Origin: Armatimonadota bacterium | GTDB taxonomy: Bacteria; Armatimonadota; UBA5829; DSUL01 | Length of the DNA stretch: 64,000 nt | Direction: 5' to 3' | Assembly: GCA_039811685.1 (NCBI GenBank) | Contig: JBDHZC010000004.1 | Location: 224,001 to 288,000, forward strand | Shown: positions 1 to 56,564 of the stretch, piece after piece | Numbering within the stretch: position 1 is the stretch's first letter | Layout: each line of letters opens with the position of its first letter | Notes under the pieces: model-generated | The model's input: the letters and a program-made list of their open reading frames with translations, nothing else | What the model was told of the DNA's origin: nothing | Database searches by the model: none | Translations under genes and position numbers: made by a program

Positions 1-102
1 AGAACCAGGAGGCCCGGTGATAGCTCGGCTTCCGTCCATAGGTTGCTCCACGGCCCGCTGCTGTTCGGGTGTCAGGCGTGCAAAAGGCACGAGCCAAGCC
101 AT
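1..102 (-). CDS. 5' part of a putative SF1 (UvrD-like) helicase / P-loop NTPase, truncated by the window edge
   Basis: Not in the ORF track. ATG at 102, preceded by AAGGAG and 3 nt after the Hsp70 stop. Translation MAWLVPFARLTPEQQRAVEQPMDGSRAITGPPGS gives a Q-motif plus the start of Walker A. Confidence 0.8.
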   Translation of the reverse strand, partial: MAWLVPFARLTPEQQRAVEQPMDGSRAITGPPGS

Positions 103-105
103 TTG

Positions 106-2499
106 CTACTCCTTCCCGCTGGGACCGATTGGGAGCACCCCTCCTCCGTCTTCTCCATTGCCACCCATCTTTCGGCGACGGCTTTCTTCGTCACAAGCCG
201 AAAGGAGTTTGTTGTCTCCTACCATACGCGCTGCAAGGCGCAGCCAGCCCACCTCCCAATCCTCCAGAGCTTCAACAGGTCCGAACGTCTCAAGAGCTTG
301 CGACAGCGCTGCATCTCGCCCGTCCTTGTCGCCTTGCCCGCTTAGGATTTTAGCGTAGAGAACGAGGTAGCCTGCTTCCCGTTCGCGTTCCAAAGCTTGC
401 TCAACCAACAAACGCGCTTTTTGAAGTTCACCGCGATGCTCGAGAGAATCGGCGAGGTTAAATAGGGGCCCACCCCAGTTTGTGCCAGCTTGGGCCGCGG
501 CCGTGTAGAAAGTCTCCTCCCGTTTATGATCGCCTAACCGCCCTGCGTAGATTCCGGCCAAGTTCAGCAGGCCCGGTTGCGGAGTACCGGCGATTGTATT
601 TGCTGTCTTTAGATGACTGAGAGCCCGCTCGAATTGCCTTACCTCTGCACAGAGTACCGCGAGCTCCCGGAACGCGGCCACGCGGGCCCATCCCGCGTAA
701 TCTCCTGTTCTAATCTTTTCCTCGATCTCAATAATCTTACCGCGAGTCTCGTTTGGGTCGACCACGTGGGTCAGAGGCCGTTCAACTGTGAGGCCGAATG
801 GACTCCCCGGCGCTCCAGCGCGAAATGCCCGTATTGCCAGCATCTGGTTGTCGTCCATATGATACTGAACTACTAGGGATTCCCCCTTGGTCACCGGTCC
901 CGAGATCCTCCAAATCGCAGATTGCAGCCGACGCTGGGCACGTCCGTCGTCAGCCGTCAGATCGATCCGAAGATCCAATGATTCAGCTGTCTCCGGTATG
1001 CTAAGGGTGTCTATCTGGCCCCAGCCGTCCGCAGGATATGGCACAGCTTCGCCCTTGGGAATCAGGGTGAGAATCCCATCTCTTGTGCGGAGGCCGATGC
1101 TATCGCTCAGAACTGGCTGAATAAGACCCGCGCCAAAAAGGCGCAGTGCCAATGAGTGCAAGGCTGCCCCCTCGGCGACGGCAGTCTGTATCTGTCCGTG
1201 GTCGTCAAAAGTCCGCACTTGTGCTTGAGGCCCCAGGTGTTGTTCCAGCGCCTCCACAACCTGTGGAATCAGGCTGCTGCCGCCGACGAGTAGCACTGTA
1301 TCCACGTCGGTTGGTCGCAAATTAGAGCGGGCTAGCGCATCATCCAGCGGCGCAAAGATGGAGCATGTGACGCCGTAATCACCCTCAATAGGCACTGTGA
1401 TGTCTTCGTCGAGAAACGGAGCGAGGATTGCCTCGAACTGTTCTAGCGTGAGAGAGGGGCTGGGTAGCAGAAGCTGCCTGCCATTTAACACACACTGATG
1501 GCTTGATGGAAGTACTGCAGTGTGGCGATCGGTATCTGTCGGATCGAAACGCTTGAAATCCTTGAGCCTTCGTACGCTGTTGCACAGCGATATCTTCAGT
1601 GACTCAGCCACGCCGAGAAGGGCTGGCTCCAGGAAGTACTTTCGCTCCTTGAACTCTATTTCGCTGGACGATATCCCATTTGCTTCGAGCAATGCAGGAA
1701 TCAGGACTTCATGTACAATGGAGTTATCAATGTCACCACCACCAAGCCGGTGGTAACGAGACACCGCTAGCGGAGCCACGCTTATCGGACGCTCCGGTGA
1801 CTGGCGCGTGAGCTGAAGTACCGCTATGTCGCAGGTGCCGCCGCCGAAGTCGAACACCACAAGGCGCGACGAGCCGCAGCGCTGCAGGGGATCCTCGTCT
1901 GGTAGGCCGTTGAGAAAAGTCAGAAACGCTCCAATCGGCTCATCAAGCAGATCCCCCGGCATTATCTGTATGCCTGCTTCGCGTGCCGCCTCCACAGTGT
2001 CCGAGCGCTGGGGCACCTGGAACGAGGCAGGTACCGTAACGACGGCCCTCTGAATGGCCGTGTCGTCGCGCAGCGTTTCCACCAGACACCCTAAAACTTT
2101 CGCTGCGATGTCGCGTGCGCATCGAAAGCCTTCCGGCGCCTGGTTGTAAGTGCGCGTAATGCCCATTTCATTCTTGCATTCGTAGAACAGGTCCCGGTAA
2201 GGTAAGAGGTTATACTCGGTGCTCTCAGCTCTTAGCCGCTTGGCGCCTTCCCCGACAAGTACCCGGTTTGGCAGAACAGCCACCACCGAAGGGAACAGCG
2301 GACTCGTAGTATTGCCGGCATTTAGTGTCTCTTGGGGAATATCGAGGCAACGCACCTGGACGCTCTCTGGCTGGTTTGGATCCCAGCTTGCCTCGGCGAC
2401 AGTTGAATTCGTTGTACCGAGATCAATGCCAATTCCCGTTACGGCTTCATCGGGTACGTCGTTCTGTCGTGCTGCCATAAGTTCACTGAAGTAGCTCAT
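106..2499 (-). CDS. Atypical Hsp70-family ATPase with C-terminal TPR-like repeats
   Basis: GIDLGTTNS, VVFDFGGGTCD, LGGGDID, LLVGGSS and AVAEGAA actin/Hsp70 motifs. Degenerate beta-sandwich region, then helical TPR-like repeats. AAAGGA RBS. Confidence 0.85.
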   Translation of the reverse strand: MSYFSELMAARQNDVPDEAVTGIGIDLGTTNSTVAEASWDPNQPESVQVRCLDIPQETLNAGNTTSPLFPSVVAVLPNRVLVGEGAKRLRAESTEYNLLPYRDLFYECKNEMGITRTYNQAPEGFRCARDIAAKVLGCLVETLRDDTAIQRAVVTVPASFQVPQRSDTVEAAREAGIQIMPGDLLDEPIGAFLTFLNGLPDEDPLQRCGSSRLVVFDFGGGTCDIAVLQLTRQSPERPISVAPLAVSRYHRLGGGDIDNSIVHEVLIPALLEANGISSSEIEFKERKYFLEPALLGVAESLKISLCNSVRRLKDFKRFDPTDTDRHTAVLPSSHQCVLNGRQLLLPSPSLTLEQFEAILAPFLDEDITVPIEGDYGVTCSIFAPLDDALARSNLRPTDVDTVLLVGGSSLIPQVVEALEQHLGPQAQVRTFDDHGQIQTAVAEGAALHSLALRLFGAGLIQPVLSDSIGLRTRDGILTLIPKGEAVPYPADGWGQIDTLSIPETAESLDLRIDLTADDGRAQRRLQSAIWRISGPVTKGESLVVQYHMDDNQMLAIRAFRAGAPGSPFGLTVERPLTHVVDPNETRGKIIEIEEKIRTGDYAGWARVAAFRELAVLCAEVRQFERALSHLKTANTIAGTPQPGLLNLAGIYAGRLGDHKREETFYTAAAQAGTNWGGPLFNLADSLEHRGELQKARLLVEQALEREREAGYLVLYAKILSGQGDKDGRDAALSQALETFGPVEALEDWEVGWLRLAARMVGDNKLLSACDEESRRRKMGGNGEDGGGVLPIGPSGKE

Positions 2500-2542
2500 G
2501 CGATTCCTTTCTTGCCAAGTTTGTGATGAGTTCCTTCCACCC

Positions 2543-5338
2543 TCACACGTCGTACACCTTCAGCACCTCATCACCATAGTGGTTGATGACTTTGACGGCG
2601 ATTTTGCCGGATTCGGGACGGGCGAAGGGGCGGCTTGTGGTGAGGTAGAGATCGGCCCACGCAGCTTCGTCCACCTCCGCTCGGAGCGCTCTCTTCAGTT
2701 TGTCGTATGGCTCGCCTGCGCCTGTGAAATAGGCGTGGCGCACGAAGAAGCTCTCTTCGTTGTAGCTCGTGTCTATGAACCAGGCGGCGATCTCGTCGGT
2801 TGCGTCTGACCGGAGCTCGCCAGTCGTCGGATCGTAGATGTCCACACCGCGGATAGTCACCTGCACCTGGTCGCCAGACAAGTGGCTCACCACGATATCC
2901 GGCTCTCCGAAGATCATGAAGAGGTTTCCGGCGCCGGTTTTCTTCAGGAGTTCGTCGCCCATCGTGAGGTCGGCGTTGATCCTTGTGGGAAGGACGACGA
3001 GGTTTCCGTAGCGCTTCGTCTCCTCGCCGACGTGTGGATCGAAGGCGAGGCCGGCGATGAGGAGCGTGTCGAATCCAGCGCCCTTCACAGCCTCCTTGGC
3101 GGCTTCACGTACGAGGTCCGGCGTGACGGTCCCAAACTCCGGGCCCACACAGACGGCCACCCGCTTTGTGGTCTCCCCTTCCGTATATTCACCGGCCGCG
3201 TGCAACCACTCGCCAGGGTAGATGTCCAGACGGTCGAACTTCAGCCGCTCACCCTTGACGGTGTTCTGGACACCGGCCTTCTTCATGTTTTCGATGATGG
3301 TGACGCCAAACTCGCCCGCTCCGCGGATAGAGAACTGGTAGCCGTCCTCCGTCGGCTTTTCAAGCTCTTTTTTGCTCTGCACGGATATCTGGCGGTGAGG
3401 AGACAGGCTTTCGACGGTGAAAGGGCCTGTAACGCGGATGCGCTTGTTGTCTTCGTAGGGCTTGTCGTAGAGAAACTCGGCGTCGGCCCGGCGGGCGATG
3501 CTGGCGTCAATCTCCTGCTGGCGCTCCCGGCGCAGGTCCCACCATTTCTTCAGCAGGGCCTCCGCCTCACTGCCCACTGGCTTCTTCCCGCTGTCCCCTG
3601 TCCGCGGCACTTCCCACTCTTCCCAGCTCTTTCCGAAGGCCTGGTTGATTTTTGCTCGCAAGTCCTCCAGCGCGGGCTGCCACTTTTCGTGGATGGTGTC
3701 TATCTCTTCGTTGTTGGCGATGGATTTCAGCGTGATGTGCGGCACGCGCTGGTAAACAAAGCCGCGCTTGATGTCGTGGCCAGTGGTCAGTGATTGGTGG
3801 TCAGTGGGCAGTGAGGCGTGGTCGGCTTCCAGCCCTCTGATTTCGGACTCTTTCTTGCGCCCCTCGGGGGAATCGGCCAGCAGGTAGTAAGGAAACTTCG
3901 CGCACATAAGGCGTGTGCGGGCAAGGGTCAGCGCTACGCGAGAGGTGTCGCAGGTGATCCAGCGGCGTCCCCACTGCTCCGCTACGTACGCCGTCGTGCC
4001 GCTGCCGCAGGTGGGGTCCAGGACGAGGTCGCCGGGGTCGGTGGTCATGAGGAGGCAACGCTCGATCACACGGCGCGCGGTCTGGACCACATACTGCTTG
4101 TCTTCGCTCCAGCCTGCTATGACGGTGTCAGTCCAGAGAGCGTTCAGTGGGACAGCACCGAAATCGTCGAGGAACCTAATGTACCCTGCCGAACTGCGCC
4201 GCGCGGAAACGCGACCGGCAGTGATCAGACGCGCCATACCTTCAGGGTTCGACTTGTAGCTGTTCGCATATGTGCGCCCGTTCACTACCACCTCGAATAC
4301 AGGGTTGCCTTGTGTCGCCAAATTGTCGTGGCGGAACAGCTTGCTGCCGGCCGGCAGCTGTTGTATCGCAGCTAAATCATCTGTCGGGAGTGTGCGGGTA
4401 CTTCCGTCAGGCAGCATTGCATAGCGGTATTCTGCTGTGCCGCCACCGCCCAACTCCTTGTTTAGGTAAAGCTGATGGTACTTCACAGCCTCTCGGTTCT
4501 TCGTGTACCACAGCAGATAGTCTGCAACCCCGGTCAGCAAGCGCGACTGGAAACCGCTGGTTTTCGCAAAGACTATCTCGCCGCAGGAATTCTCACTCCC
4601 AAACACCTCGTCCAGAAGGCACCGCACCAGGTGCACGTTCTCATCACCAATCTGCACGAACACGCTGCCGGATTCAGTGAGAAGCTCGCGGGCGACGACC
4701 AGCCTGTCGCGGAGATACGCGAGGTACGAGTGGATGCCGTACTCCCACGTGTCCCGGAACGCCCGGACCTGCTCCGGCTGGCGCGTCAGGTCAGAGGCTG
4801 CCCCGTCCTTCACATCGCGCTTGCGCGTGGACACCTGCCAGTTGCTGCCGAACTTGATGCCGTAGGGCGGGTCTATGTAGATCATCTGGACCTGCCCCTT
4901 CAGCCCCTCCTTCTCCGCCAGCGAGTTCATCACCAGCAGGCTGTCGCCCAGGATCATCCTGTTGGACCAGTGGTTGGCGTGCTCGTAGAACTGAATCTGT
5001 TCCTCGAACGGCAGGCCGTTGAAGGCATCGCCGAACAGATCGAGCTGGGCGGGGGGCGCTGGAGACGCTTGGGCGCTCGCCTGCCGCCGGAAGTCCTCGA
5101 TAATCGCCTGCGGGTGAATCTTCTCCTGAATGTAGATGGGGACAGACAGCACGGACAGGTCCTCAGCGTCCTGCTGGTCCTTGCCCTTCCACACAAGCTG
5201 GGGGTCCAGCGACGGATCGCGCGGATACAGCACCGCCTTCGGCTTCTGCTCGTCCTCGCTTACAAACCCTCGAAGCTCCTCCGTCGGTATGTTCGGCCGG
5301 GTGTCGGAATGGGTGATGTTCTCAATCTTCTTGTTCAT
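2543..5338 (-). CDS. Type III-like RM methyltransferase (Mod), beta-class amino-MTase
   Basis: Motif IV YIDPPY precedes motif I LDPTCGSGTT. Start set at MNKKIE (5338). Confidence 0.9.
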   Translation of the reverse strand: MNKKIENITHSDTRPNIPTEELRGFVSEDEQKPKAVLYPRDPSLDPQLVWKGKDQQDAEDLSVLSVPIYIQEKIHPQAIIEDFRRQASAQASPAPPAQLDLFGDAFNGLPFEEQIQFYEHANHWSNRMILGDSLLVMNSLAEKEGLKGQVQMIYIDPPYGIKFGSNWQVSTRKRDVKDGAASDLTRQPEQVRAFRDTWEYGIHSYLAYLRDRLVVARELLTESGSVFVQIGDENVHLVRCLLDEVFGSENSCGEIVFAKTSGFQSRLLTGVADYLLWYTKNREAVKYHQLYLNKELGGGGTAEYRYAMLPDGSTRTLPTDDLAAIQQLPAGSKLFRHDNLATQGNPVFEVVVNGRTYANSYKSNPEGMARLITAGRVSARRSSAGYIRFLDDFGAVPLNALWTDTVIAGWSEDKQYVVQTARRVIERCLLMTTDPGDLVLDPTCGSGTTAYVAEQWGRRWITCDTSRVALTLARTRLMCAKFPYYLLADSPEGRKKESEIRGLEADHASLPTDHQSLTTGHDIKRGFVYQRVPHITLKSIANNEEIDTIHEKWQPALEDLRAKINQAFGKSWEEWEVPRTGDSGKKPVGSEAEALLKKWWDLRRERQQEIDASIARRADAEFLYDKPYEDNKRIRVTGPFTVESLSPHRQISVQSKKELEKPTEDGYQFSIRGAGEFGVTIIENMKKAGVQNTVKGERLKFDRLDIYPGEWLHAAGEYTEGETTKRVAVCVGPEFGTVTPDLVREAAKEAVKGAGFDTLLIAGLAFDPHVGEETKRYGNLVVLPTRINADLTMGDELLKKTGAGNLFMIFGEPDIVVSHLSGDQVQVTIRGVDIYDPTTGELRSDATDEIAAWFIDTSYNEESFFVRHAYFTGAGEPYDKLKRALRAEVDEAAWADLYLTTSRPFARPESGKIAVKVINHYGDEVLKVYDV
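3563..3818. repeat. Perfect 17-bp inverted repeat (3563-3579 / 3802-3818) within degenerate heptamer arrays inside Mod
   Basis: CGCCTCACTGCCCACTG versus CAGTGGGCAGTGAGGCG. Heptamers CAGTGGT CAGTGAT TGGTGGT CAGTGGG CAGTGAG GCGTGGT at 3781-3822. Confidence 0.85.
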
Positions 5339-5921
5339 GGGTCCTCTGGGCCTCATGGGACGCACGCTGAATGTTACGTTGCCGCAGCCGCGCCCGCGTC
5401 ATGCGCTCGCGCAGGCCACCTTCCTCAAGGAAGGACTTCTCCAGGCTTCTCAGCAGGCGGTCCAGCAGATAGTTCGTCTGGTGAATCAGGCAGATGATGG
5501 TGTTTGCCGCGACCTCCGGAGGCGCGTGGGCCACACGAGTCTCATAAGTCTTATAGGACACATGCTCCCCGTACGCCAGCTTCCGGATTACCTGCGCCTG
5601 CGGGTGGTTTTTGTCCCACGCCGGCAGTTTGCGCGTGCGCAGAAAGTCGCGGTAGTCCTCCAGAAGCTCCTCCAGACTGGCGCGCGCGACGTTCATCAGC
5701 TTGATTTCCGTCTCTTTGGAGGTCGCCGAAGCCATGCTCCCTTCCACGATGTTTTGCTTGCCAGACCTTGCCGCCTGAATCATCTGATCGTGTGTCCGGC
5801 TGCGCCTGTCAACAAAGCGCTGACAAAAGGCGGCCGTCGCGTCATAGACGATCCTGGCTTTCTGGTAGGCCGCAAGGTCCTGGTAGCCTCCGTGCTTCGG
5901 GATGAAGCCTGCTTCAGACAT
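5322..5921 (-). CDS. Four-helix-bundle protein (23S rRNA-IVP/Avd-like, suffix-domain type)
   Basis: GGYQDLAAYQKA, DQMIQAARSGKQNIVEGS, ARASLEELLEDY and C-terminal FLEEGGLRERM. Confidence 0.85.
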   Translation of the reverse strand: MSEAGFIPKHGGYQDLAAYQKARIVYDATAAFCQRFVDRRSRTHDQMIQAARSGKQNIVEGSMASATSKETEIKLMNVARASLEELLEDYRDFLRTRKLPAWDKNHPQAQVIRKLAYGEHVSYKTYETRVAHAPPEVAANTIICLIHQTNYLLDRLLRSLEKSFLEEGGLRERMTRARLRQRNIQRASHEAQRTHEQED

Positions 5922-5953
5922 CGGCATGGGTCTTGTGGGTCTCATGGGACGCA
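5336..5953. repeat. 29-bp direct repeats (5336-5364, 5925-5953) built from 9-mers, flanking the four-helix-bundle gene
   Basis: CATGGGTCCTCTGGGCCTCATGGGACGCA versus CATGGGTCTTGTGGGTCTCATGGGACGCA (26/29 identical). Related 9-mers at 5534-5564. Confidence 0.85.
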
Positions 5954-8919
5954 TGATGGAGCCAGGCCCGTATCGTCTGCTTCGCATCCCACGGATCGCT
6001 TATCTCCAGGAACGCCCAGCGGCCGTAGCCGCCGTGGTTGTTGATGGCTGGAACCCACAGTGTCCGGGCCGTAGCGGTCTTCGCCGTCTTGTCCTTTCTC
6101 TTTTCACCGGAGCACTCGAGGATCAGGTTCAGCGTCTGTCCGTCCCCCTGCCGGACGTGGCAGATGAAGTCCGGGATGTAGCTGCGCTCCTCCCCGGAAA
6201 GCGAATAGGGAATTGTGAAGCCGAGGTTGTGGTTCTTGACGTAGTGTGCGACTTCGACCATCTCCTCCAGCGCCTGCGCAAGTTTTTGCTCCCACGACTC
6301 CGTGTCGGCCACGACGTGCGAGATGTGGCACTTTTCCGGATCGGTCGCATACACCGGGCGCGTTGTGTCGAAGTCCACGTAGCGCGTGGAGCCGACGGTG
6401 TCATACGGTCGCAGGATCGGTATCAGCCGCTTTTCGCCCTCCTGGGACGCCACAATCGCCCTGTAGATACGGTCGGCGGCGTCGTGCTGAAACTGGGTCA
6501 GGAGCATAAGCTGCGGGAAGCAGTTGTCCTTGCAGGTGAGGCATTCCTCAAGCCAGCGGCGGGCGATTTCGACCAGATCCGGGAAGTACCAGTGTTTGAT
6601 ATTACCCTCTTCGTCCCGGAAGTACGCCTCGAGCGTCCGTTTGGCCAGGATAAAGGCCACCTCTTGCATTCGGTGTTTGCGAAGGTCATCCAGGTTGTGA
6701 ATAACGGTTTCACCGACAAAGGCGCCCATCTTCGTGCGAGTGGTAACATCTTCGGTCGTGAGGGCGAAGCGTGAATCCTCTGTGAAATCTGCGGTCAGCC
6801 GCTCCGCGGGAAACTCATAGCGGTATCCCGAAACACGCGGGAAGGTGATCTCGCATGCAATCCGGTCTTCCAGCGCCCGGACGCGCGTGGGGATCGGTCC
6901 GGGTTTCGGGTCGGTCATCGAACCGGCCGCCGGGATAAAGGAAAACGGAACGCCGTACACCTCTGCGTATTCTGCGGGGAACAGCCCGTTGTCATCCGGC
7001 TGATGGCTCATTCGGCGCAGCCCGCGTCCAACCACCTGCTCACAGAGGAGCTGTGTCCCAAATGCGCGTACCCCGAGGATATGGGTCACGGTGTTCGCAT
7101 CCCAGCCTTCGGTGAGCATTGAGACTGAGACAACGCAGCGCACATGCTCCCCCAGCTTTCCCCGTTTACCGACCGTGTTCATAACCTCGCGCAGCAGGTC
7201 CTCATCGGTCAACTTGCTGGCGTCGCGTCCAGGGAAGCGCGCTACATACTCCGCCTTGAACTCCTCGATCTCGGCGGCGGCTATCTTCTTGAACTCATCG
7301 CTCATCGCCTCGCCCGATTCGAGCTGCTCGCTGTCAATCAGAATCGTGTTCGGACGGTGCAGCCACTGGCCGTGCTCGACATTGCTGAAAAGAGGGAGCG
7401 CCCCGGGCACATTGACCGTCTGGCCATCTTCGAGCGGTTTCTCCCATCCGGCGATGAAGTCGAAGACGAGCTTCGAAACGTTCGTGTTGTTGCAGACGAC
7501 AATGAACACCGGCGGAACGCCGGAATTACCGGCGTCATCTGTGCTCTGCTCCCACTGCCGGTAGTATTTCTCGTAGTTGCCGTAAAGGCTGCGAATGGCG
7601 CCTTCCAGCTCTGCTGGCAGCTTTGGTTCAACGGGAGCAGCCTCCGTGCCGCGGCCTTTTTTCGGGAGATCGTCCCGGATGCGCGTCCACAGATCGCGGT
7701 ACGTCGGCTGGTCGCCCGTCATGGAATCGTCCGCTACGGGCACGCGCGGGACTTTCACGATGCCGGACTCGATGGCGTCCACGAGAGAGAAGTCCGAGAC
7801 AACCCACGGGAACAACATCCCTTCCGGATAGCCTGACCCGCGAAGGAAGAACGGTGTTGCGGACAGATCGTAGATGGCCTTTACACCTATCTTGTTCTTG
7901 ACCGCCTCAATGCCTGATATCCAGACGCGGGCTGCTTCGTCGCGCTTCTGCGCCTCTTTGCGCTCATCGCCGGTCAGCTTTTCTTCGGGGGCTTCCGGCT
8001 TGCGCCTGTAGCAGTGGTGCGCTTCGTCGTTGATGACGATGATGTTCTTCTTCGAGCCAAATTGCCGGCACACTCTGCGCACCATTTCATCGGGCGTCTC
8101 CGTGAACGTCGAGCTTGACGAACCTCCACGCGACTGCAGCACCTCTTTGGTGAGCTTCCCGGCCGAGATCTTTTCCCGGTGGAGGAATGCGTGGTAGTTC
8201 GTGATGAGGATATTGGCCTGACCGAGATCTTCGCGCATGTCGGCGGGCACAACATCCATAGTCCGGTAGTAGTTGTCCCCGTCGTTTGGGAGCAACACGC
8301 GCAGGCGGTCTTTGATGGTGATTCCCGGCGTGATAATCAGAAAAGTATCGGAAAAGCGCGTGTCCTGCCGGTTTGCCAGCTTGTTGAGGGTGTGCCAGGC
8401 GATAAGCATGGCCATAACGACCGTCTTGCCAGTTCCCGTGGCCATCTTGAGCGCAAGGCGGTCCAAACCGGGATTGCTGGCGTTGTTGAAGTCTTTCAGC
8501 TTTGTGGCCAGGGACGCATCGCCCATTTTGCCCGCGCACTCGGTTAGGTAGATCAGAGTCTCCAGCGCTTCGATCTGGCAGAAGTAGAGCCGCCGCTCGC
8601 GATCTTCAGCGGTCCAGTGCGCAAGAAGCTGCCGGGTAACGGGGGTAACGCCTGGTCTGCCCTCCCGCCGCCACAATCCCACGCGCTCGCGCACCAGATT
8701 GATGAAGGTATTCTCTTCGATTCGCTCCTGCGTCCATTCCGTAGCCAGCACAAGCTGTTTGCTTTTCTTCTTGGCTTTTGGGACGGGAATGAAGTAGGAG
8801 CTGCGCCTGCGGCTTTCGACGATGTCGCTCGTGATGCCATCTTCATCGAAGCGGAAGTGGCGGCGGGGCTCCTCAAAAGGAGAGTTGATAACGGGGTTTT
8901 CGATTACGACCTGAGCCAT
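5914..8919 (-). CDS. Type III-like restriction subunit (Res): SF2 helicase plus C-terminal PD-(D/E)xK-like nuclease
   Basis: MATGTGKT, DEAHH, SATP, LTEGWD, QVVGRGLR; YIPDF...LILECSG. Confidence 0.9.
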   Translation of the reverse strand: MAQVVIENPVINSPFEEPRRHFRFDEDGITSDIVESRRRSSYFIPVPKAKKKSKQLVLATEWTQERIEENTFINLVRERVGLWRREGRPGVTPVTRQLLAHWTAEDRERRLYFCQIEALETLIYLTECAGKMGDASLATKLKDFNNASNPGLDRLALKMATGTGKTVVMAMLIAWHTLNKLANRQDTRFSDTFLIITPGITIKDRLRVLLPNDGDNYYRTMDVVPADMREDLGQANILITNYHAFLHREKISAGKLTKEVLQSRGGSSSSTFTETPDEMVRRVCRQFGSKKNIIVINDEAHHCYRRKPEAPEEKLTGDERKEAQKRDEAARVWISGIEAVKNKIGVKAIYDLSATPFFLRGSGYPEGMLFPWVVSDFSLVDAIESGIVKVPRVPVADDSMTGDQPTYRDLWTRIRDDLPKKGRGTEAAPVEPKLPAELEGAIRSLYGNYEKYYRQWEQSTDDAGNSGVPPVFIVVCNNTNVSKLVFDFIAGWEKPLEDGQTVNVPGALPLFSNVEHGQWLHRPNTILIDSEQLESGEAMSDEFKKIAAAEIEEFKAEYVARFPGRDASKLTDEDLLREVMNTVGKRGKLGEHVRCVVSVSMLTEGWDANTVTHILGVRAFGTQLLCEQVVGRGLRRMSHQPDDNGLFPAEYAEVYGVPFSFIPAAGSMTDPKPGPIPTRVRALEDRIACEITFPRVSGYRYEFPAERLTADFTEDSRFALTTEDVTTRTKMGAFVGETVIHNLDDLRKHRMQEVAFILAKRTLEAYFRDEEGNIKHWYFPDLVEIARRWLEECLTCKDNCFPQLMLLTQFQHDAADRIYRAIVASQEGEKRLIPILRPYDTVGSTRYVDFDTTRPVYATDPEKCHISHVVADTESWEQKLAQALEEMVEVAHYVKNHNLGFTIPYSLSGEERSYIPDFICHVRQGDGQTLNLILECSGEKRKDKTAKTATARTLWVPAINNHGGYGRWAFLEISDPWDAKQTIRAWLHHASHETHKTHADV

Positions 8920-9143
8920 GGTATCTCGTGTCAGCCGTGTAGTCCGCGCACGCTGATCAGCTTAATATAGCGAATCACCGGCCTGCGGTCAATCAGAAGC
9001 TGAAGGAGAGAGCGCAATACAGCCCAATTTCGTCCCCTGGAACCTGCCCCCGACTTTTGTTCGTTGGGCTAAAATGGAGTGGTTCGCACAGCCGCTCCCA
9101 GTGCGTCAGCATCCGCTCGGTCAACAGTAGGGGTTTTGTGTCT

Positions 9144-12107
9144 ATGTCTCAAGACAAAATCATCATTCACGGCGCGCGCCAGCACAACCTTAAAGATATC
9201 GATCTTGAGATTCCGCGCGACAAATTGGTGGTGATTACGGGACTGTCCGGCTCGGGCAAGTCTTCGCTGGCCTTTGACACCATTTATGCGGAGGGGCAAC
9301 GCCGGTATGTAGAGTCGCTCTCAGCCTACGCGCGGCAGTTTCTGGGGCAGATGGACAAGCCGGATGTTGACGACATTCAGGGGCTGTCACCCGCCGTCTC
9401 CATCGACCAGAAATCCACCACGCGCAATCCGCGCTCTACTGTTGGCACGGTGACGGAGATTTATGACTACCTGCGCCTGCTGTTTGCCAGGGTGGGGACC
9501 CCGCACTGTCCGAAGTGCGGTCAGGCGGTTGCCCAGCAGACCACAGAGCAGATTGTGGATACCGTCCTCAGCCTGCCGGAGGGTAGCCGGCTTCAGATTC
9601 TCGCTCCTCTCGTGCGTGGTCGCAAAGGCACGTATCAAACGGTTATTGACGACGTCCGCCAGCAGGGGTACGTCCGCGTGCGCGTTGACGGGCAGATGCA
9701 CGAGGTGACCGACGACATTGAGATGGATCGCTACAAGCAGCACACCATCGAGGTTGTCATTGACCGCATCGTGCTGCGCTCGGACGCCGGGCAGCGCATC
9801 TCTGATTCTATCTCCACGGCCCTGCGCTTGGCCGGTGGCAACGTGAGCGTTTTCGTTCAGTCCCGTAAAGAAGGCGACCAGGACGGCTTTGATGAGCAGG
9901 AGCTCACCTTCAGCGAACACTTCGCATGCCCGAACTGCGGCGTCAGTCTGGAAGAGGTCGCACCTCGTAACTTCTCCTTCAACTCTCCCTATGGCGCCTG
10001 CCCTGAGTGCCACGGGCTGGGTGCGTTTCAGAAGATAGACGCCGACCTTGTCATCCCGAACAAAAAGCTGTCAATCAATCAGGGAGCTATTGCGCCACTC
10101 GCTCGCTCGACCAGCGAATACTGGCAGAAGGTTCTAAAGGGAGTTGGCGAGGCGTACGGCTTTACAATGGATACGCCTGTTGAAGACCTGACTGCCAAAC
10201 AGTTTCAGATTTTGCTCAACGGTTCCGATCGGCAAATCGAAATACACTCTGAGAGCAGGTATGGGCGCGGGAGCGTGTGGCAGACCCGCTTTGAGGGCGT
10301 GCTCAACTGGCTGGACAGGCGCTACAGAGAATCGACGTCTCCTCAGCTTCGCGAAGAGACCGAAAGACTGATGACCAGCCACCCGTGTCCGTCCTGTCAC
10401 GGCGCTCGCCTGAAGCCGGAGAGCCTGGCCGTAACACTGGGGGATCGCAATATTTCGCAGGTGACGGAGCTGTCAGTCAGCGCCGCACTGGACTTCTTCG
10501 ACGGACTCGCTCTTTCTGAGCGTCAGCAGATTATCGCGCGGCAGGTCGTCAAAGAAATCAAAGTACGTCTAGGTTTTCTACGAGATGTTGGACTGACCTA
10601 CCTGACTCTCAACCGTGCAGCAGGCACGCTTGCGGGGGGCGAGGCTCAGCGCATCCGTCTTGCGACGCAGATAGGCTCCGGCCTGATGGGCGTCTTGTAC
10701 ATTCTGGACGAACCAAGCATCGGGCTTCACCAGCGCGACAACCATCGCCTCATTGAGACTCTTGTGCGCCTGCGCGATCTCGGGAACACGATCATCGTTG
10801 TGGAGCATGACGAGGACACGATGCGGGCCGCGGACTGGATCATTGATATTGGTCCGGGAGCCGGAGAGCACGGCGGCTTTGTCGTGTCCGCAGGTCCGAT
10901 CGAGGAGATTATCAGAAATTCGGAGTCTTTTACCGGCCGCTACCTCGCCGGAGTTGAGCGCATCGAAGTCCCGGTTGAGCGCCGATCGCCAAACGGCAAG
11001 TTTGTCGAAGTCAAAGGCGCTACGCAGCACAACCTTAAGAACATAGACGTGCGCATCCCGCTTGGAGTATTTACCTGCGTGACCGGAGTCTCTGGTTCTG
11101 GCAAGTCGACTCTGATTCAGGAGACTTTGTATCCGCGGCTGATGCGCGAAGTCTATGGAACCTTCCGTGGCGCGGGCAAGCACAGAGAAATGAAGGGGGC
11201 GGAGAACGTCGACAAGGTCATCGACATCAATCAGTCCCCGATCGGTCGCACGCCGCGTTCAAATCCAGCCACCTACACGGGTGTTTTCGATATGATCCGG
11301 CAACTCTTCGCTCAGACTCCGGATGCCCGTATGCGTGGGTACAAGCCCGGCCGTTTCAGCTTCAACGTGAAGGGAGGCCGCTGCGAGTCATGCCACGGGG
11401 ATGGGATCATCAAGATTGAGATGCACTTCCTGCCGGACGTCTATATTCCGTGCGAGGTGTGCAAAGGCAAGCGTTATAACCGGGAAACGCTGGAGGTTCG
11501 CTACAAAGGCAAGACAATCGCGGACGTTCTGGACATGACCGTCCAACAGGCGCTGGAGTTCTTCCGAAATATTCCTCCCATCGCGCGAAAGCTCTCGACA
11601 ATTCACGATGTTGGACTGGACTATATCAAGCTGGGACAACCCGCGACACAGCTTTCGGGGGGTGAGGCCCAGCGCGTGAAGCTGGCTACGGAACTGGCCA
11701 AGCGCGGCACAGGGAAGACCCTGTATATTCTCGATGAGCCCACCACCGGACTCCATTTCCACGACATCAAGAAGCTGCTGGAAGTCTTGCAGCGCCTGAC
11801 TTCTCAGGGCAACTCTGTACTGGTTATTGAGCATAACCTGGACGTCATCAAGACAGCAGACTGGATTATTGATATGGGGCCGGAAGGTGGCGAGCAGGGC
11901 GGTACAGTCGTGGCGCTGGGGACACCAGAAGCTGTCGCCGCGTGCGAAGCCAGTCATACCGGACGCTTTCTCAGGCCCATGCTGGACGCAGAGAAAGTGC
12001 AGCAGGCGGCGTTGAATGCCTCCATAGATTCAGCCTCCGAGAACGGCAGCGGCCGACGTCGTCCGGCTAGAAAAAGCGCGGTGAAAAAGGTGGAGGCTGC
12101 CGCTTAG
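9144..12107 (+). CDS. uvrA: Excinuclease ABC subunit A
   Basis: [33 protein letters not shown] and zinc-finger CxxC motifs. Start at MSQDKI. Confidence 0.97.
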
Positions 12108-54086: not shown

Positions 54087-56564
54087 ATGTGGCAACGATT
54101 CACCGAGCGAGCGCGCAGGGTTGTGTTCTTTGCGCAGGAAGAGGCGAACAGGCTCGGCGAGAACTATGTGAGCACCGAGCATCTGCTTCTGGGTCTGGTC
54201 CGTGAGAATGACAGCGTGGCCGCGAGGATTCTGGATCGACTGGGCGTGTCTCTAAGCCGCATTCGGGCGGAAGTAGAGCGTCAGGTCTCTCGTGGGGATG
54301 GCCGGCTTGGTCAGGACATGCAGCTTACACCTCGTGCAAAGCGCGTCATTGATCTGGCCTACGACGAAGCCCGCCAGCTCAACAACAACTACATCGGGAC
54401 CGAGCATCTTCTGCTCGGGCTGATCAGAGAAGGTGACGGCCTGGCTGGCAGAGTGCTGCAGAAGCTGGGTGTGGACCTCGAGAGAACTCGTCGCGAGGTT
54501 ATGAATCTCCAGGATACGGATACCGCTCTGTCAACAACGCGGACGCGCTCCCGGACGCCGACCCTGGATGAGTTCGGCCGTGATCTGACAGACCTGGCTC
54601 GTTCTGAAAAGTTGGACCCTGTCATCGGGCGTCACTCAGAGATCGAGCGCGTTATACAGATTTTGTCCCGTCGCACGAAGAACAACCCGTGTCTGATAGG
54701 GGAGCCGGGTGTGGGCAAGACCGCAATTGCCGAGGGCTTGGCGCAGCGGATCGCCTCCGGGGACATCCCCGAGATGCTCAAAGACCGCCGCATTGTCGCT
54801 CTCGACCTTCCGGGGCTGGTCGCTGGCACCAAGTATCGGGGTGAGTTCGAAGAGCGGATGAAGCGCGTCATTGACGAGGTTCGCAAGGCTTCCGGCGAAG
54901 TCATCCTTTTTGTCGATGAGCTCCACACGCTGGTTGGGGCGGGAGCTGCTGAGGGCGCGATTGATGCCTCCAACATCATGAAGCCTGCGCTGGCGCGCGG
55001 TGAATTGCAGTGTATCGGCGCAACAACGCTGGATGAATTCCGCAAGTACATCGAGCGCGACGCTGCTCTTGAGCGGCGCTTCCAGCCTGTTCAGGTGCGA
55101 GAGCCGTCTGTGGAAGACGCCATTGAGATTCTTCGCGGGCTGCGGCCGCGCTATGAAGAGCATCATGGCATCCAGATTGAGGATGAAGCTCTGGTCGCTG
55201 CCGCCCGCCTGGCGGATCGCTACATCAGCGATCGCTCTTTGCCCGACAAAGCTATCGATCTCATTGATGAGGCGGCGTCCCGCGTTCGGTTACAGCTGGC
55301 CCTGCCTCCGGTGGAGTTACGGGAAGTGAACGTTGAGCTGCAGTCCATCAGCAAAGAGCTCGCGTCACTCCCGCAGAACTCGGAGTACGAGCGAGCAGTT
55401 GATTTACAGGCTCGCGAGCGAGAGCTGAAGGACAGGCTCTCCGACCTCAGCCGGGACTGGGATGAGCGCCGTGAGCAGATGCAGCAGACTGTCTCAGAAG
55501 ACGAGATTGCGCACATTGTGTACTCGTGGACGGGTATTCCGGTCTCGCGGCTGGTAGAAGGCGAGACGGCTAAGCTGCTCAAAATGGAGGAAGTTCTGCA
55601 CCACCGGATTATCGGGCAGAACGAAGCCATCGAGGCGATCAGCCGGGCAGTGAGGCGAGCGCGCAGCGGGCTGAAAGATCCTAAGCGGCCGATGGGATCG
55701 TTCGTATTCCTCGGGCCGACTGGCGTGGGCAAGACAGAGCTTGCACGAGCGCTGGCGGAGTTCCTGTTTGACAATGAGGACAACCTCATCCGAATTGACA
55801 TGTCTGAGTATATGGAGCGCTTTGCAGTCTCCAGACTGGTTGGGGCGCCTCCCGGATATGTTGGGTACGATGAGGGCGGTCAGCTCACAGAGCAGGTTCG
55901 CCGCCGCCCGTACTCGGTAATTTTGCTGGACGAGATTGAGAAGGCGCATCCTGAGGTGTTCAACATCCTTCTGCAGGTTATGGAGGACGGACGCCTGACG
56001 GACGCTCAAGGACGAGTCGTGGACTTCAAAAACACGGTTCTGATTATGACGTCCAACATTGGGGCTCATCTGATCGCAGGAGAGTCCACGATGGGGCTGC
56101 GCAGTCTGAAGCCTGTCGGCGAAGATCAGAAGTCTTACGAGGGTATGAGGAATCGCGTGATGGAAGAGATGAAGAAGGTCTTCCGTCCGGAGTTCATCAA
56201 CCGCGTGGACGAGACCATTGTGTTCCATTCGCTCAGCAAAGACGAGATCGTTCAGATTGTTGACCTGATGCTGGATCGAGTGAGAGTGCAGCTTCGCACG
56301 CAAGGGATGGAGCTGGAAATCTCCCGAGAAGTCAAGGAACTGCTGGCGGAGGAAGGCTTCGATCCGACATTTGGCGCGCGGCCTCTACGCAGAGCCGTTC
56401 AGCGTCAGATTGAAGATCCGCTGTCCGAAGAGATTCTGCTCGGCCGCTTCAGCGACGGCGATAAGATACGCGCTGAGGTGGAGGACGGCAAGATCTTCTT
56501 CACGAAGGCGGATGCTTCTCTGGACAAGCTGGCCTCGGTTGAGGAGCAGCCATCGAAAAACTGA
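54087..56564 (+). CDS. clpC: ATP-dependent Clp protease ATP-binding subunit ClpC
   Basis: Two Clp-N repeats, [19 protein letters not shown] ClpP-docking loop. Confidence 0.95.

Follow-up and report, generated by a model that had tools for sequence, protein, structure and literature searches.

At the left edge of a stretch of 64,000 nucleotides (nt) from an Armatimonadota genome (G000:C4:224001-288000, where G000 denotes the source genome; this whole stretch is called the window below), a restriction-modification (RM) system is followed on the minus strand by a gene for an Hsp70-like protein ending in tetratricopeptide repeats (Hsp70-TPR) and by a helicase gene. The locus raises the question whether the last two genes are an extension of the RM system or a module of their own, and what such a module might do. 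An earlier sequence-only reading had described five tightly packed minus-strand genes as a candidate defence operon. All five lie where that reading had placed them, in the order Res, four-helix-bundle gene, Mod, a 43-nt gap with a ribosome-binding site, Hsp70-TPR, a 3-nt gap and a UvrD-like helicase, and their labels agree with family scans. The analysis favours, with a probability of roughly 0.55, a locus assembled from three independent modules, namely a Type III-like RM system, an inserted four-helix-bundle gene and a mobile cassette of the Hsp70-TPR and helicase genes, the cassette being an autonomous anti-phage or anti-mobile-element module. The three modules probably now form one transcript, and the cassette most likely often rides at the end of, or within, RM and other defence operons.

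The Hsp70-TPR and helicase gene pair

The Hsp70-TPR gene occupies positions 106-2499 of the minus strand (797 amino acids, aa) and ends with a TAG stop codon at 108-106. The helicase gene starts with an ATG at position 102, 3 nt past this stop codon, and leaves the window at its left edge after 34 codons (1-102, minus strand). The helicase-like label had rested on a Walker A motif within these 34 codons. Extension of the sequence to the left vindicated it and yielded the whole gene (G000:C4:222909-224102, identical to L002:16909-18102, minus strand), which encodes a compact UvrD-like protein of 397 aa belonging to helicase superfamily 1 (SF1).

A scan with an Hsp70-TPR profile, employing one genome per species, matched at least 601 stretches, at least 470 of which encode relatives, and the best 80 loci were kept. 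A helicase homologue was found directly downstream in 63 of the 69 loci with at least 400 nt of sequence beyond the Hsp70-TPR gene; in one of the six exceptions (L054) only a remnant is left after a deletion. The reverse test with a helicase profile on metagenome contigs matched 598 stretches with 269 relatives, of which 80 loci were kept. Here, an Hsp70-TPR homologue ended within 400 nt upstream in 69 of the 71 helicase-seeded loci that had at least 300 nt of upstream sequence available. The earlier proposal that the pair is a conserved module without a name was thereby borne out in both directions. Among 53 gene pairs, 38 share a 4-nt overlap and 40 overlap to any extent, and the two genes are an obligate, translationally coupled pair. 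A third core gene was searched for among 25 small upstream open reading frames (ORFs), which gave only three phmmer pairs and no common family; no such ORF is present at the locus studied here, and the candidate was rejected.

The Hsp70-TPR protein was matched by the Pfam model HSP70 (2e-26) and by TPR_2 under its cut-off. It shares with the canonical Hsp70 proteins DnaK, HscA and HscC a nucleotide-binding domain with catalytic motifs (about residues 20-455), an interdomain linker and a beta substrate-binding domain (about 460-580). Unlike these proteins, it has no alpha-helical lid, the place of which after the beta domain is occupied by TPR repeats (about 583-797), and its scores fall far under the equivalog cut-offs (95.5 bits against 822 for DnaK TIGR02350 and 85.5 against 708 for HscA). 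Positions 22-559/566 of the family profile could be aligned to solved DnaK chains and positions 611-708 to consensus TPR proteins, and the alignment of the TPR region to designed consensus TPR proteins was weak, including CTPR390 at an E-value of 0.72. Identity to the genome's own DnaK amounts to 27% over residues 23-487, with the motifs retained. The phosphate-1, phosphate-2, adenosine and catalytic Lys/Glu-equivalent motifs are invariant in 23 Hsp70-TPR sequences, in agreement with the earlier statement that the ATPase motifs are intact.

The best 120 listed relatives, from thousands in all, are 774-854 aa long, are 43-49% identical and are labelled just 'Hsp70 family protein'. The claim that the protein matches no named system also stood, as it hit none of the families in PADLOC-DB v2.0.0 (2023) at E ≤ 0.01 in a search that covered the hidden Markov models (HMMs) only, without system logic. 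The C-terminal 338 aa, comprising the beta substrate-binding domain and the TPR region, retrieved 327 representatives (clusters at 50% identity) at E ≤ 1e-3 among 1.84 billion proteins. Full-length matches to this module are about 780-830 aa long and are matched at about 460-790, a few longer ones reaching up to 985 aa, and no other architecture was found among the matches from this collection. In the ESM Atlas, eukaryotic Hsp70-plus-TPR clusters (Chlorophyta, 715 aa; diatoms, 728 aa) were observed with feature scores of 0.89-0.91, as were shorter bacterial forms of 635-657 aa in Bacteroidota.

The helicase was matched by PF00580 (8.9e-11) and UvrD_C (6.3e-09). Its Walker A motif, which begins at the window edge as GPPGS, reads GPPGSGKS in the full gene. 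The Q motif, Walker A and B and motifs III-VI of SF1A enzymes are all retained and are conserved in 24 helicases, and there are no accessory domains or insertions. The top PADLOC match was C3a187 NERD+UvrD (3.4e-19) and the match to GajB was partial (best 1.9e-14 over residues 128-293); comparison with solved structures gave PcrA (1e-07) and GajB (6e-05), the best solved relatives being PcrA and UvrD. The helicases end, after a variable linker, with the consensus D-D-[LI]-[LT]-D-[LFI]-[LF]-COOH (DDLxDLL-COOH), which is represented at the own locus by DDIDIL-COOH. When such a tail was defined by L, F, I or M as the last residue and at least two acidic residues among the last eight, it was present in 41 of 47 helicases from the genome loci and the own gene, and in 74 of 78 from the metagenome loci. 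The conservation of this acidic-hydrophobic tail suggests that it may dock onto the TPR or the substrate-binding domain of the Hsp70-TPR partner.

The record titles of cassette relatives span a wide range of phyla. The family is large and belongs mostly to uncultured environmental lineages, which may explain why the cassette was missed by screens in model organisms. Near-identical Hsp70-TPR proteins occur in different phyla, for example in L003 (Clostridia) together with L007 and L008 (Acidobacteriota). Within the phylum of the window, the cassette was detected in 13 of 401 genomes scattered over families, and the Hsp70-TPR copy in a genome of the same family is just 34% identical. This distribution shows that the cassette spreads horizontally.

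Insertion of the cassette into the operon

The cassette is bracketed by a 73-nt direct repeat. The inner copy (2539-2611) consists of the last 22 codons of mod, the stop codon and 4 nt, and the outer copy (G000:C4:222806-222878) lies between the helicase gene and a convergent gene for a copper P-type ATPase, which comes next on the left extension of the contig, at distances of 31 nt and 3 nt from the respective stop codons. Both copies are 96% identical at a spacing of 3733 nt, and their three differences are all synonymous third positions. As the repeat is derived from mod and brackets the cassette, the latter is an insertion at the 3' end of mod in a pre-existing operon. The junctions, including both flanks of the outer repeat copy, are identical in contigs of independent public runs. 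Of the sequence words in the stretch from window position -1499 to 4000, half or more are present in each of 18 DNA runs of activated sludge, wastewater, bioreactor and soil metagenomes, the 20 matching entries stemming from 13 studies.

The gene for the four-helix-bundle protein with a 'suffix' domain is located between res and mod (5322-5987, minus strand; 221 aa by the longest ORF) and was matched by TIGR04258 with 84.6 bits (cut-off 40) and also by TIGR02436. It is bracketed by a 34-nt direct repeat (5336-5369 and 5925-5958, 85% identity), which duplicates a junction composed of the upstream gene's end and the ATG region of the next gene. Because of this arrangement, the gene looks like a second plug-in insertion in the style of the cassette. 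The likely real start codons are the ATG at 5927 for the four-helix-bundle gene and the ATG at 5338 for Mod. As an inserted gene would inherit a start context while the downstream gene would keep one, the operon could have gained two passengers unbroken. These junction-duplicating insertions (73 nt for the cassette and 34 nt for the four-helix-bundle gene) suggest how RM operons may acquire passengers without being disrupted.

A further bracketed pair was found in L035, a metagenome-assembled genome of Verrucomicrobiota, in which the repeat is at least 52 nt long (L035:1104-1155 and 5014-5065). It represents coding sequence for a methyltransferase C-terminal tail ('..AEELDFVVNYDIKYRLG'), which closely follows the IIG methyltransferase-like ORF called upstream and is in a different frame. 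Two amino-acid changes are present in the outer copy, which extends to the contig end. The repeat in L056 is low-complexity G-rich sequence, and tblastx repeat matches in L032, L042, L062 and L067 were likewise of low complexity and were set aside. An empty site was not found: no close relative carries this RM system (Mod was matched in 7 of 41 genomes, best at 54%), and the uvrA and copper ATPase genes are not neighbours in five genomes of the same family. Two contig joints, 369->4226 (contig depth 93) and 375->4226 (depth 2.8), were considered as a cassette-free allele and rejected, the sides being only 24-28 nt long; they are read as homologous mod genes of other organisms.

The claim that the five genes are one extended Type III-like RM system did not hold up. 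Of the 401 genomes of the phylum, 74 contain the Res family of this operon (BPTD_3080), 13 contain the cassette and only G000, G203 and G204 contain both. The two adjoin each other in G000 alone, which corresponds to 1 of 13 cassette genomes and 1 of 74 RM genomes, and the 73-nt repeat marks the insertion there. Mod and Res of this family were detected in only 1 of the 80 other loci (L018), in which four ORFs separate Mod from the pair.

Defence neighbourhoods and possible function

Neighbouring ORFs were predicted with a simple greedy caller and clustered, and the 257 ORFs within 5 kb that reached a length of 200 aa were scanned against PADLOC by means of 223 representatives. Left out were L077 and L078 (near-copies of L075) as well as L043, L045, L055, L059 and L080 (no clean Hsp70-TPR ORF in the cluster), and five generic matches (RtcR-like, PsyrT-like helicase, PP2C, STK_OB and WYL) were set aside. 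A PADLOC match at E ≤ 1e-20 was obtained within 5 kb in 35 of 73 loci, mostly to RM-like genes, and in 21 of the 38 loci with at least 6 kb of flank. At the level of ORFs, 61 of 257 neighbours were matched, compared with 2 of 34 in the rest of the window (Fisher p=0.015), one of these two being UvrA. Measured against this small control, cassette neighbourhoods are enriched in defence genes, RM-like ones above all, as had been anticipated for the homologues.

The neighbours include RM genes of types I, II, IIG (Eco57I-like), III and IV, Hma (HmaB, HmaC), BrxL, Hachiman and DarTG, and further Dnd/Pbe-like genes and type III CRISPR accessory genes. HKD-SNF2 helicase-nucleases are found near the pair in 15 loci and ISP-type methyltransferases in 8 loci. 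In 31 of 63 loci the next gene upstream has the same orientation and lies no more than 150 nt away, and in 13 of them the nearest or second-nearest gene is a PADLOC match, mostly a methyltransferase. In one locus (L071:6750-17182) the cassette is situated between an HKD(PLD)-SNF2 helicase-nuclease gene and an ISP-type methyltransferase gene; the two are contiguous (4-9 nt apart) in L012, L021, L028, L031, L067 and L081. On a FastTree phylogeny of 65 Hsp70-TPR proteins, the RM labels required 13 changes for 14 rows, with a mean of 12.7 for shuffled labels. Such scattering indicates that the association with RM was gained or lost many times.

The defence function of the cassette, its tail docking, its trigger and its effector step are what we infer from sequence comparison. 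In an autonomous anti-phage module of this kind, the Hsp70-like protein would be an ATP-driven switch. Its substrate-binding and TPR part would serve as both sensor and dock and would hold the helicase by the conserved acidic-hydrophobic C-terminal tail. An infection cue, for example a phage protein bound by one of these two regions, could then shift the nucleotide state, and this shift would release or activate the helicase. The helicase would be the output, which might act on invading DNA or replication intermediates, or burn ATP. The proposed switch role fits a preprint (10.64898/2026.10.19.760177), according to the accessible text of which Hsp70-like NTPases can replace STAND (signal transduction ATPases with numerous domains) NTPases in tripartite conflict proteins. 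By its composition, the pair would be a conserved, unnamed module of the defence-island kind that combines an NTPase sensor with an SF1 helicase. If it is a defence system, a chaperone fold joins the known switches of bacterial immunity, and the two proteins would offer a simple model of an Hsp70 cycle that gates a nucleic-acid motor.

A more specific proposal combines chaperone-gated immunity, in which an Hsp70 with TPR in place of the lid leashes a minimal UvrD-like motor by an EEVD-like tail until phage proteins flip the ATPase and the helicase is unleashed on invading DNA, with spread into the 3' ends of methyltransferase genes by duplicated junctions that leave the host operon intact. Taken as a whole, this proposal is rather unlikely. 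If chaperone gating did apply, the cassette would represent a prokaryotic version of the Hsp70-TPR-tail logic of eukaryotic co-chaperones, with the Hsp70 fold replacing a STAND NTPase as the sensor switch of innate immunity.

Several observations weigh against an autonomous, mobile defence module. In five loci (L039, L063, L064, L073 and L076) the Hsp70-TPR gene is followed by housekeeping genes and not by a helicase; of 18 conserved TPR columns, 4-5 are lost in the orphan proteins of L063 and L064 and none in those of L039, L073 and L076. Full-length members were absent from 50,697 phage records and 72,556 plasmid records, in which matches were limited to the nucleotide-binding domain at 25-31% identity, and PHROGs contained only generic Hsp70-like and helicase families; mobility is therefore argued from phylogeny and repeats alone. 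Clear flanking repeats were detected in only 2 of 40 testable loci, in addition to a weak 40-nt repeat of 87% identity in L046. No strong PADLOC match was present within 5 kb in 38 of 73 loci, many of which have short flanks, and the control of 34 ORFs stems from a single genome, with related loci not being independent. The cassette does not encode a nuclease, toxin or membrane effector. Concerning the docking, tail class and Hsp70-TPR columns did not show a clear TPR excess of covariation with at most nine independent pairs. The TPR region contributed 7 of the 20 top covarying columns compared with 29% of all variable columns, and the high rank of R670 and R689 is a lead only at this number of pairs.

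The frequent company of RM genes could also mean that the pair acts as a guard or helper of translocating restriction enzymes. It might be triggered once these enzymes are blocked by a phage anti-restriction protein, as PrrC is upon such a block of the EcoprrI restriction enzyme. Alternatively, it might remove restriction complexes that are stalled on host DNA or attack it, so that restriction would be alleviated after the entry of an RM system into a new host. RM-like genes are indeed the commonest neighbours (tallied in about 25 of 73 loci). The 13 of 63 loci with the cassette chained at most 150 nt downstream of a PADLOC-positive gene, the position between R and M in L071, the repeated rise or loss of the RM association on the tree and the origin of both clear flanking repeats from methyltransferase 3' (C-terminal-tail) coding sequence all point in the same direction. 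However, the partners belong to unrelated RM types (I, II, IIG, III, IV and Hma) and include non-RM genes (Hachiman, DarTG and CRISPR accessory genes), and about half of the loci are devoid of an RM-like gene within 5 kb. In the phylum, the BPTD_3080 RM system occurs in 3 of 13 cassette genomes versus 71 of 388 others and is adjacent to the cassette only in G000. Since no other defence class is as abundant as RM systems, chance alone would make them the most frequent neighbours within any defence island, and a guard or helper role for RM appears improbable.

A role in accessory DNA maintenance, in which an Hsp70-like remodeller and an SF1 translocase clear protein roadblocks or protein-DNA adducts, or restart forks, and are spread horizontally as a stress-fitness gene pair, is suggested by the helicase itself: relatives of UvrD, PcrA and Rep strip proteins from DNA, and PcrA and UvrD are its best solved relatives. 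The lack of a nuclease or toxin in the cassette, its closeness to uvrA at this locus and the 38 of 73 loci without a strong defence neighbour are in keeping with such a role. There is nevertheless little likelihood of it, given that the cassette has a sparse and scattered distribution (13 of 401 genomes, and no more than 34% identity to the copy from a genome of the same family), is surrounded by an excess of defence genes and was inserted into RM operons, and given that uvrA is not among the neighbour clusters found in at least three loci. It is very unlikely that the pair is a selfish addiction element or hitch-hiker, in which a chaperone-controlled, potentially harmful helicase stabilises its island without being primarily antiviral. 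The pair is obligate and tightly coupled, the helicase tail recalls the chaperone-addiction tails of antitoxins in toxin-antitoxin-chaperone (TAC) systems, and the cassette plugs in with the host operon unbroken, but no toxin fold was recognised and Hsp70-TPR stands alone in five loci; the search design had no locus able to reveal a harmful lone helicase.

Comparison with known systems and layout of the locus

No description of a pair of Hsp70-TPR and a UvrD-like helicase was found in the full-text literature, with supplements and subscription journals not covered, nor in the accessible parts of PMC11090510, PMC7159879, PMC8195603, PMC13069673, PMC12458937 and the preprint 10.64898/2026.10.19.760177. 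The closest comparison concerns Type III CoCoNuT systems. According to the accessible text of PMC11090510, these encode CnuD, which consists of Hsp70-like nucleotide-binding and substrate-binding domains with HEAT-like repeats and has degenerate ATP-binding motifs, together with the SF1 helicase CnuH, which is UPF1-like with a helical insertion and oligonucleotide/oligosaccharide-binding (OB) folds. As far as this text goes, both systems share an Hsp70 nucleotide-binding and substrate-binding unit with helical repeats beside an SF1 helicase gene, in predicted defence loci often near RM-type systems. In contrast to CoCoNuT, neither a McrB-like NxD GTPase (CnuB) nor a DUF2357 McrC (CnuC) was detected in Pfam scans of the five genes and the left flank. 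The helicase is UvrD-like (SF1A), has 397 aa and contains no insertion, whereas CnuH is described as UPF1-like, and the ATP motifs are invariant in Hsp70-TPR and degenerate in CnuD, a distinction drawn from the description of CnuD and not from its sequence. On account of the missing McrB and McrC, the UvrD-like instead of UPF1-like helicase and the intact ATP motifs, the cassette is, by its predicted features, not a CoCoNuT member.

The likeness to Gabija that the sequence-only reading had pointed out turned out to be loose. What stood is a two-gene arrangement in which a UvrD-like SF1 ATPase itself lacks a nuclease, together with partial matches of the helicase to the GajB model and structure. 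The partner is Hsp70-TPR instead of the ATPase-TOPRIM (OLD-family) nuclease GajA, no match to which was obtained in a PADLOC scan of the five operon genes including the helicase, and the helicase is about 100 aa shorter than GajB and bears the tail motif.

The tail is reminiscent of eukaryotic Hsp70 and Hsp90, whose EEVD tails are bound by TPR co-chaperones such as Hop and CHIP. By analogy, both cases would involve an acidic-hydrophobic extreme C-terminus on a flexible linker and a TPR domain in the partner, but here the TPR is fused to Hsp70, the tail is on the client-like helicase and the binding is putative. TAC systems employ a SecB-like chaperone with a true toxin-antitoxin pair. They are mentioned in the accessible part of PMC13069673. 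Similar to TAC systems, the chaperone may control its partner via a C-terminal extension of the latter and phage proteins could compete for the chaperone, whereas the cassette contains neither a SecB-like chaperone nor a toxin-antitoxin pair. Genes embedded in RM or Hma operons are exemplified by PrrC in EcoprrI and by the Hma-embedded candidates (HEC) of PADLOC. The cassette resembles them in being plugged into RM-type operons and is located beside Hma genes in L061 and L026, but Hsp70-TPR fits no HEC or other PADLOC model.

The RM genes that host the cassette deviate from the typical Type III gene order, which is mod followed by res. Mod itself is of the Type III kind, and at this locus res precedes mod with the four-helix-bundle gene between them. 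The res gene (5914-8919, minus strand) encodes a protein of 1001 aa that combines an SF2 helicase domain with an endonuclease-like domain at its C-terminus. The protein scored 1226 bits (cut-off 800) with NCBIfam NF046055 'BPTD_3080 family restriction endonuclease' and 4.8e-12 with Pfam ResIII, and RE_endonuc gave an E-value of 0.0024 and 18.1 bits, under the cut-off of 23.4. Classical Type III Res models fit only weakly (PADLOC REase_III 5.7e-08; NF012027 27.6 bits, cut-off 564). The mod gene (2543-5365, minus strand) encodes a beta-class N6/N4 DNA methyltransferase of a Type III-like RM system with 940 aa, which was matched near full length by PADLOC MTase_III PDLC03632 (1015.6 bits) and by Pfam N6_N4_Mtase PF01555 (4.1e-29). 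Mod and Hsp70-TPR are separated by a 43-nt spacer (2500-2542, minus strand) from stop to start codon, with the ribosome-binding site AAGGAA 5 nt before the ATG.

Promoter-like and terminator-like sites were searched as simple consensus matches and their counts were compared with shuffled sequence. The first scan found one promoter-like site (1.9 expected) and three terminator-like sites (4.4 expected), the second scan two (2.5 expected) and 12 (7.9 expected, standard deviation 2.8), so that neither count is clearly beyond the shuffles and the promoter-like count is at chance level. A promoter-like site (TTGACC, 17 nt, TATATT; 8964-8992, minus strand) is present 45 nt upstream of res in the spacer common to the divergent uvrA gene. 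Neither type of site was found in the 43-nt or the 3-nt gap, and every minus-strand terminator-like site lies within a gene, which is consistent with the absence of an evident terminator reported before. With no sites in the short gaps and one promoter-like site upstream of res, a single transcript from res to the helicase is plausible. Short contigs from one metatranscriptome library map with full identity to the outer repeat, to mod and to a part of the Hsp70-TPR gene; as carry-over of DNA is possible, these are no evidence of transcription.

Several other genes in the vicinity deserve mention. The true DnaK of the genome (L002:11001-12836, 611 aa, Pfam HSP70 826 bits) is encoded a few kb from the cassette, as are an Hsp20 and a DnaJ-like protein (L002:9376-12836 for all three, 5-9 kb left of the window); their closeness to the cassette is probably a coincidence. 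The housekeeping UvrA gene (9057-12107, plus strand) scored 2.3e-105 with the PADLOC model 'mad3', which illustrates that lone PADLOC HMM matches can be false positives for defence. An ORF of 825 aa at 54087-56564 (plus strand) was matched by PADLOC PDC-M37B (1.3e-41) and DolB (5.6e-31) and may encode a generic AAA+ protein.

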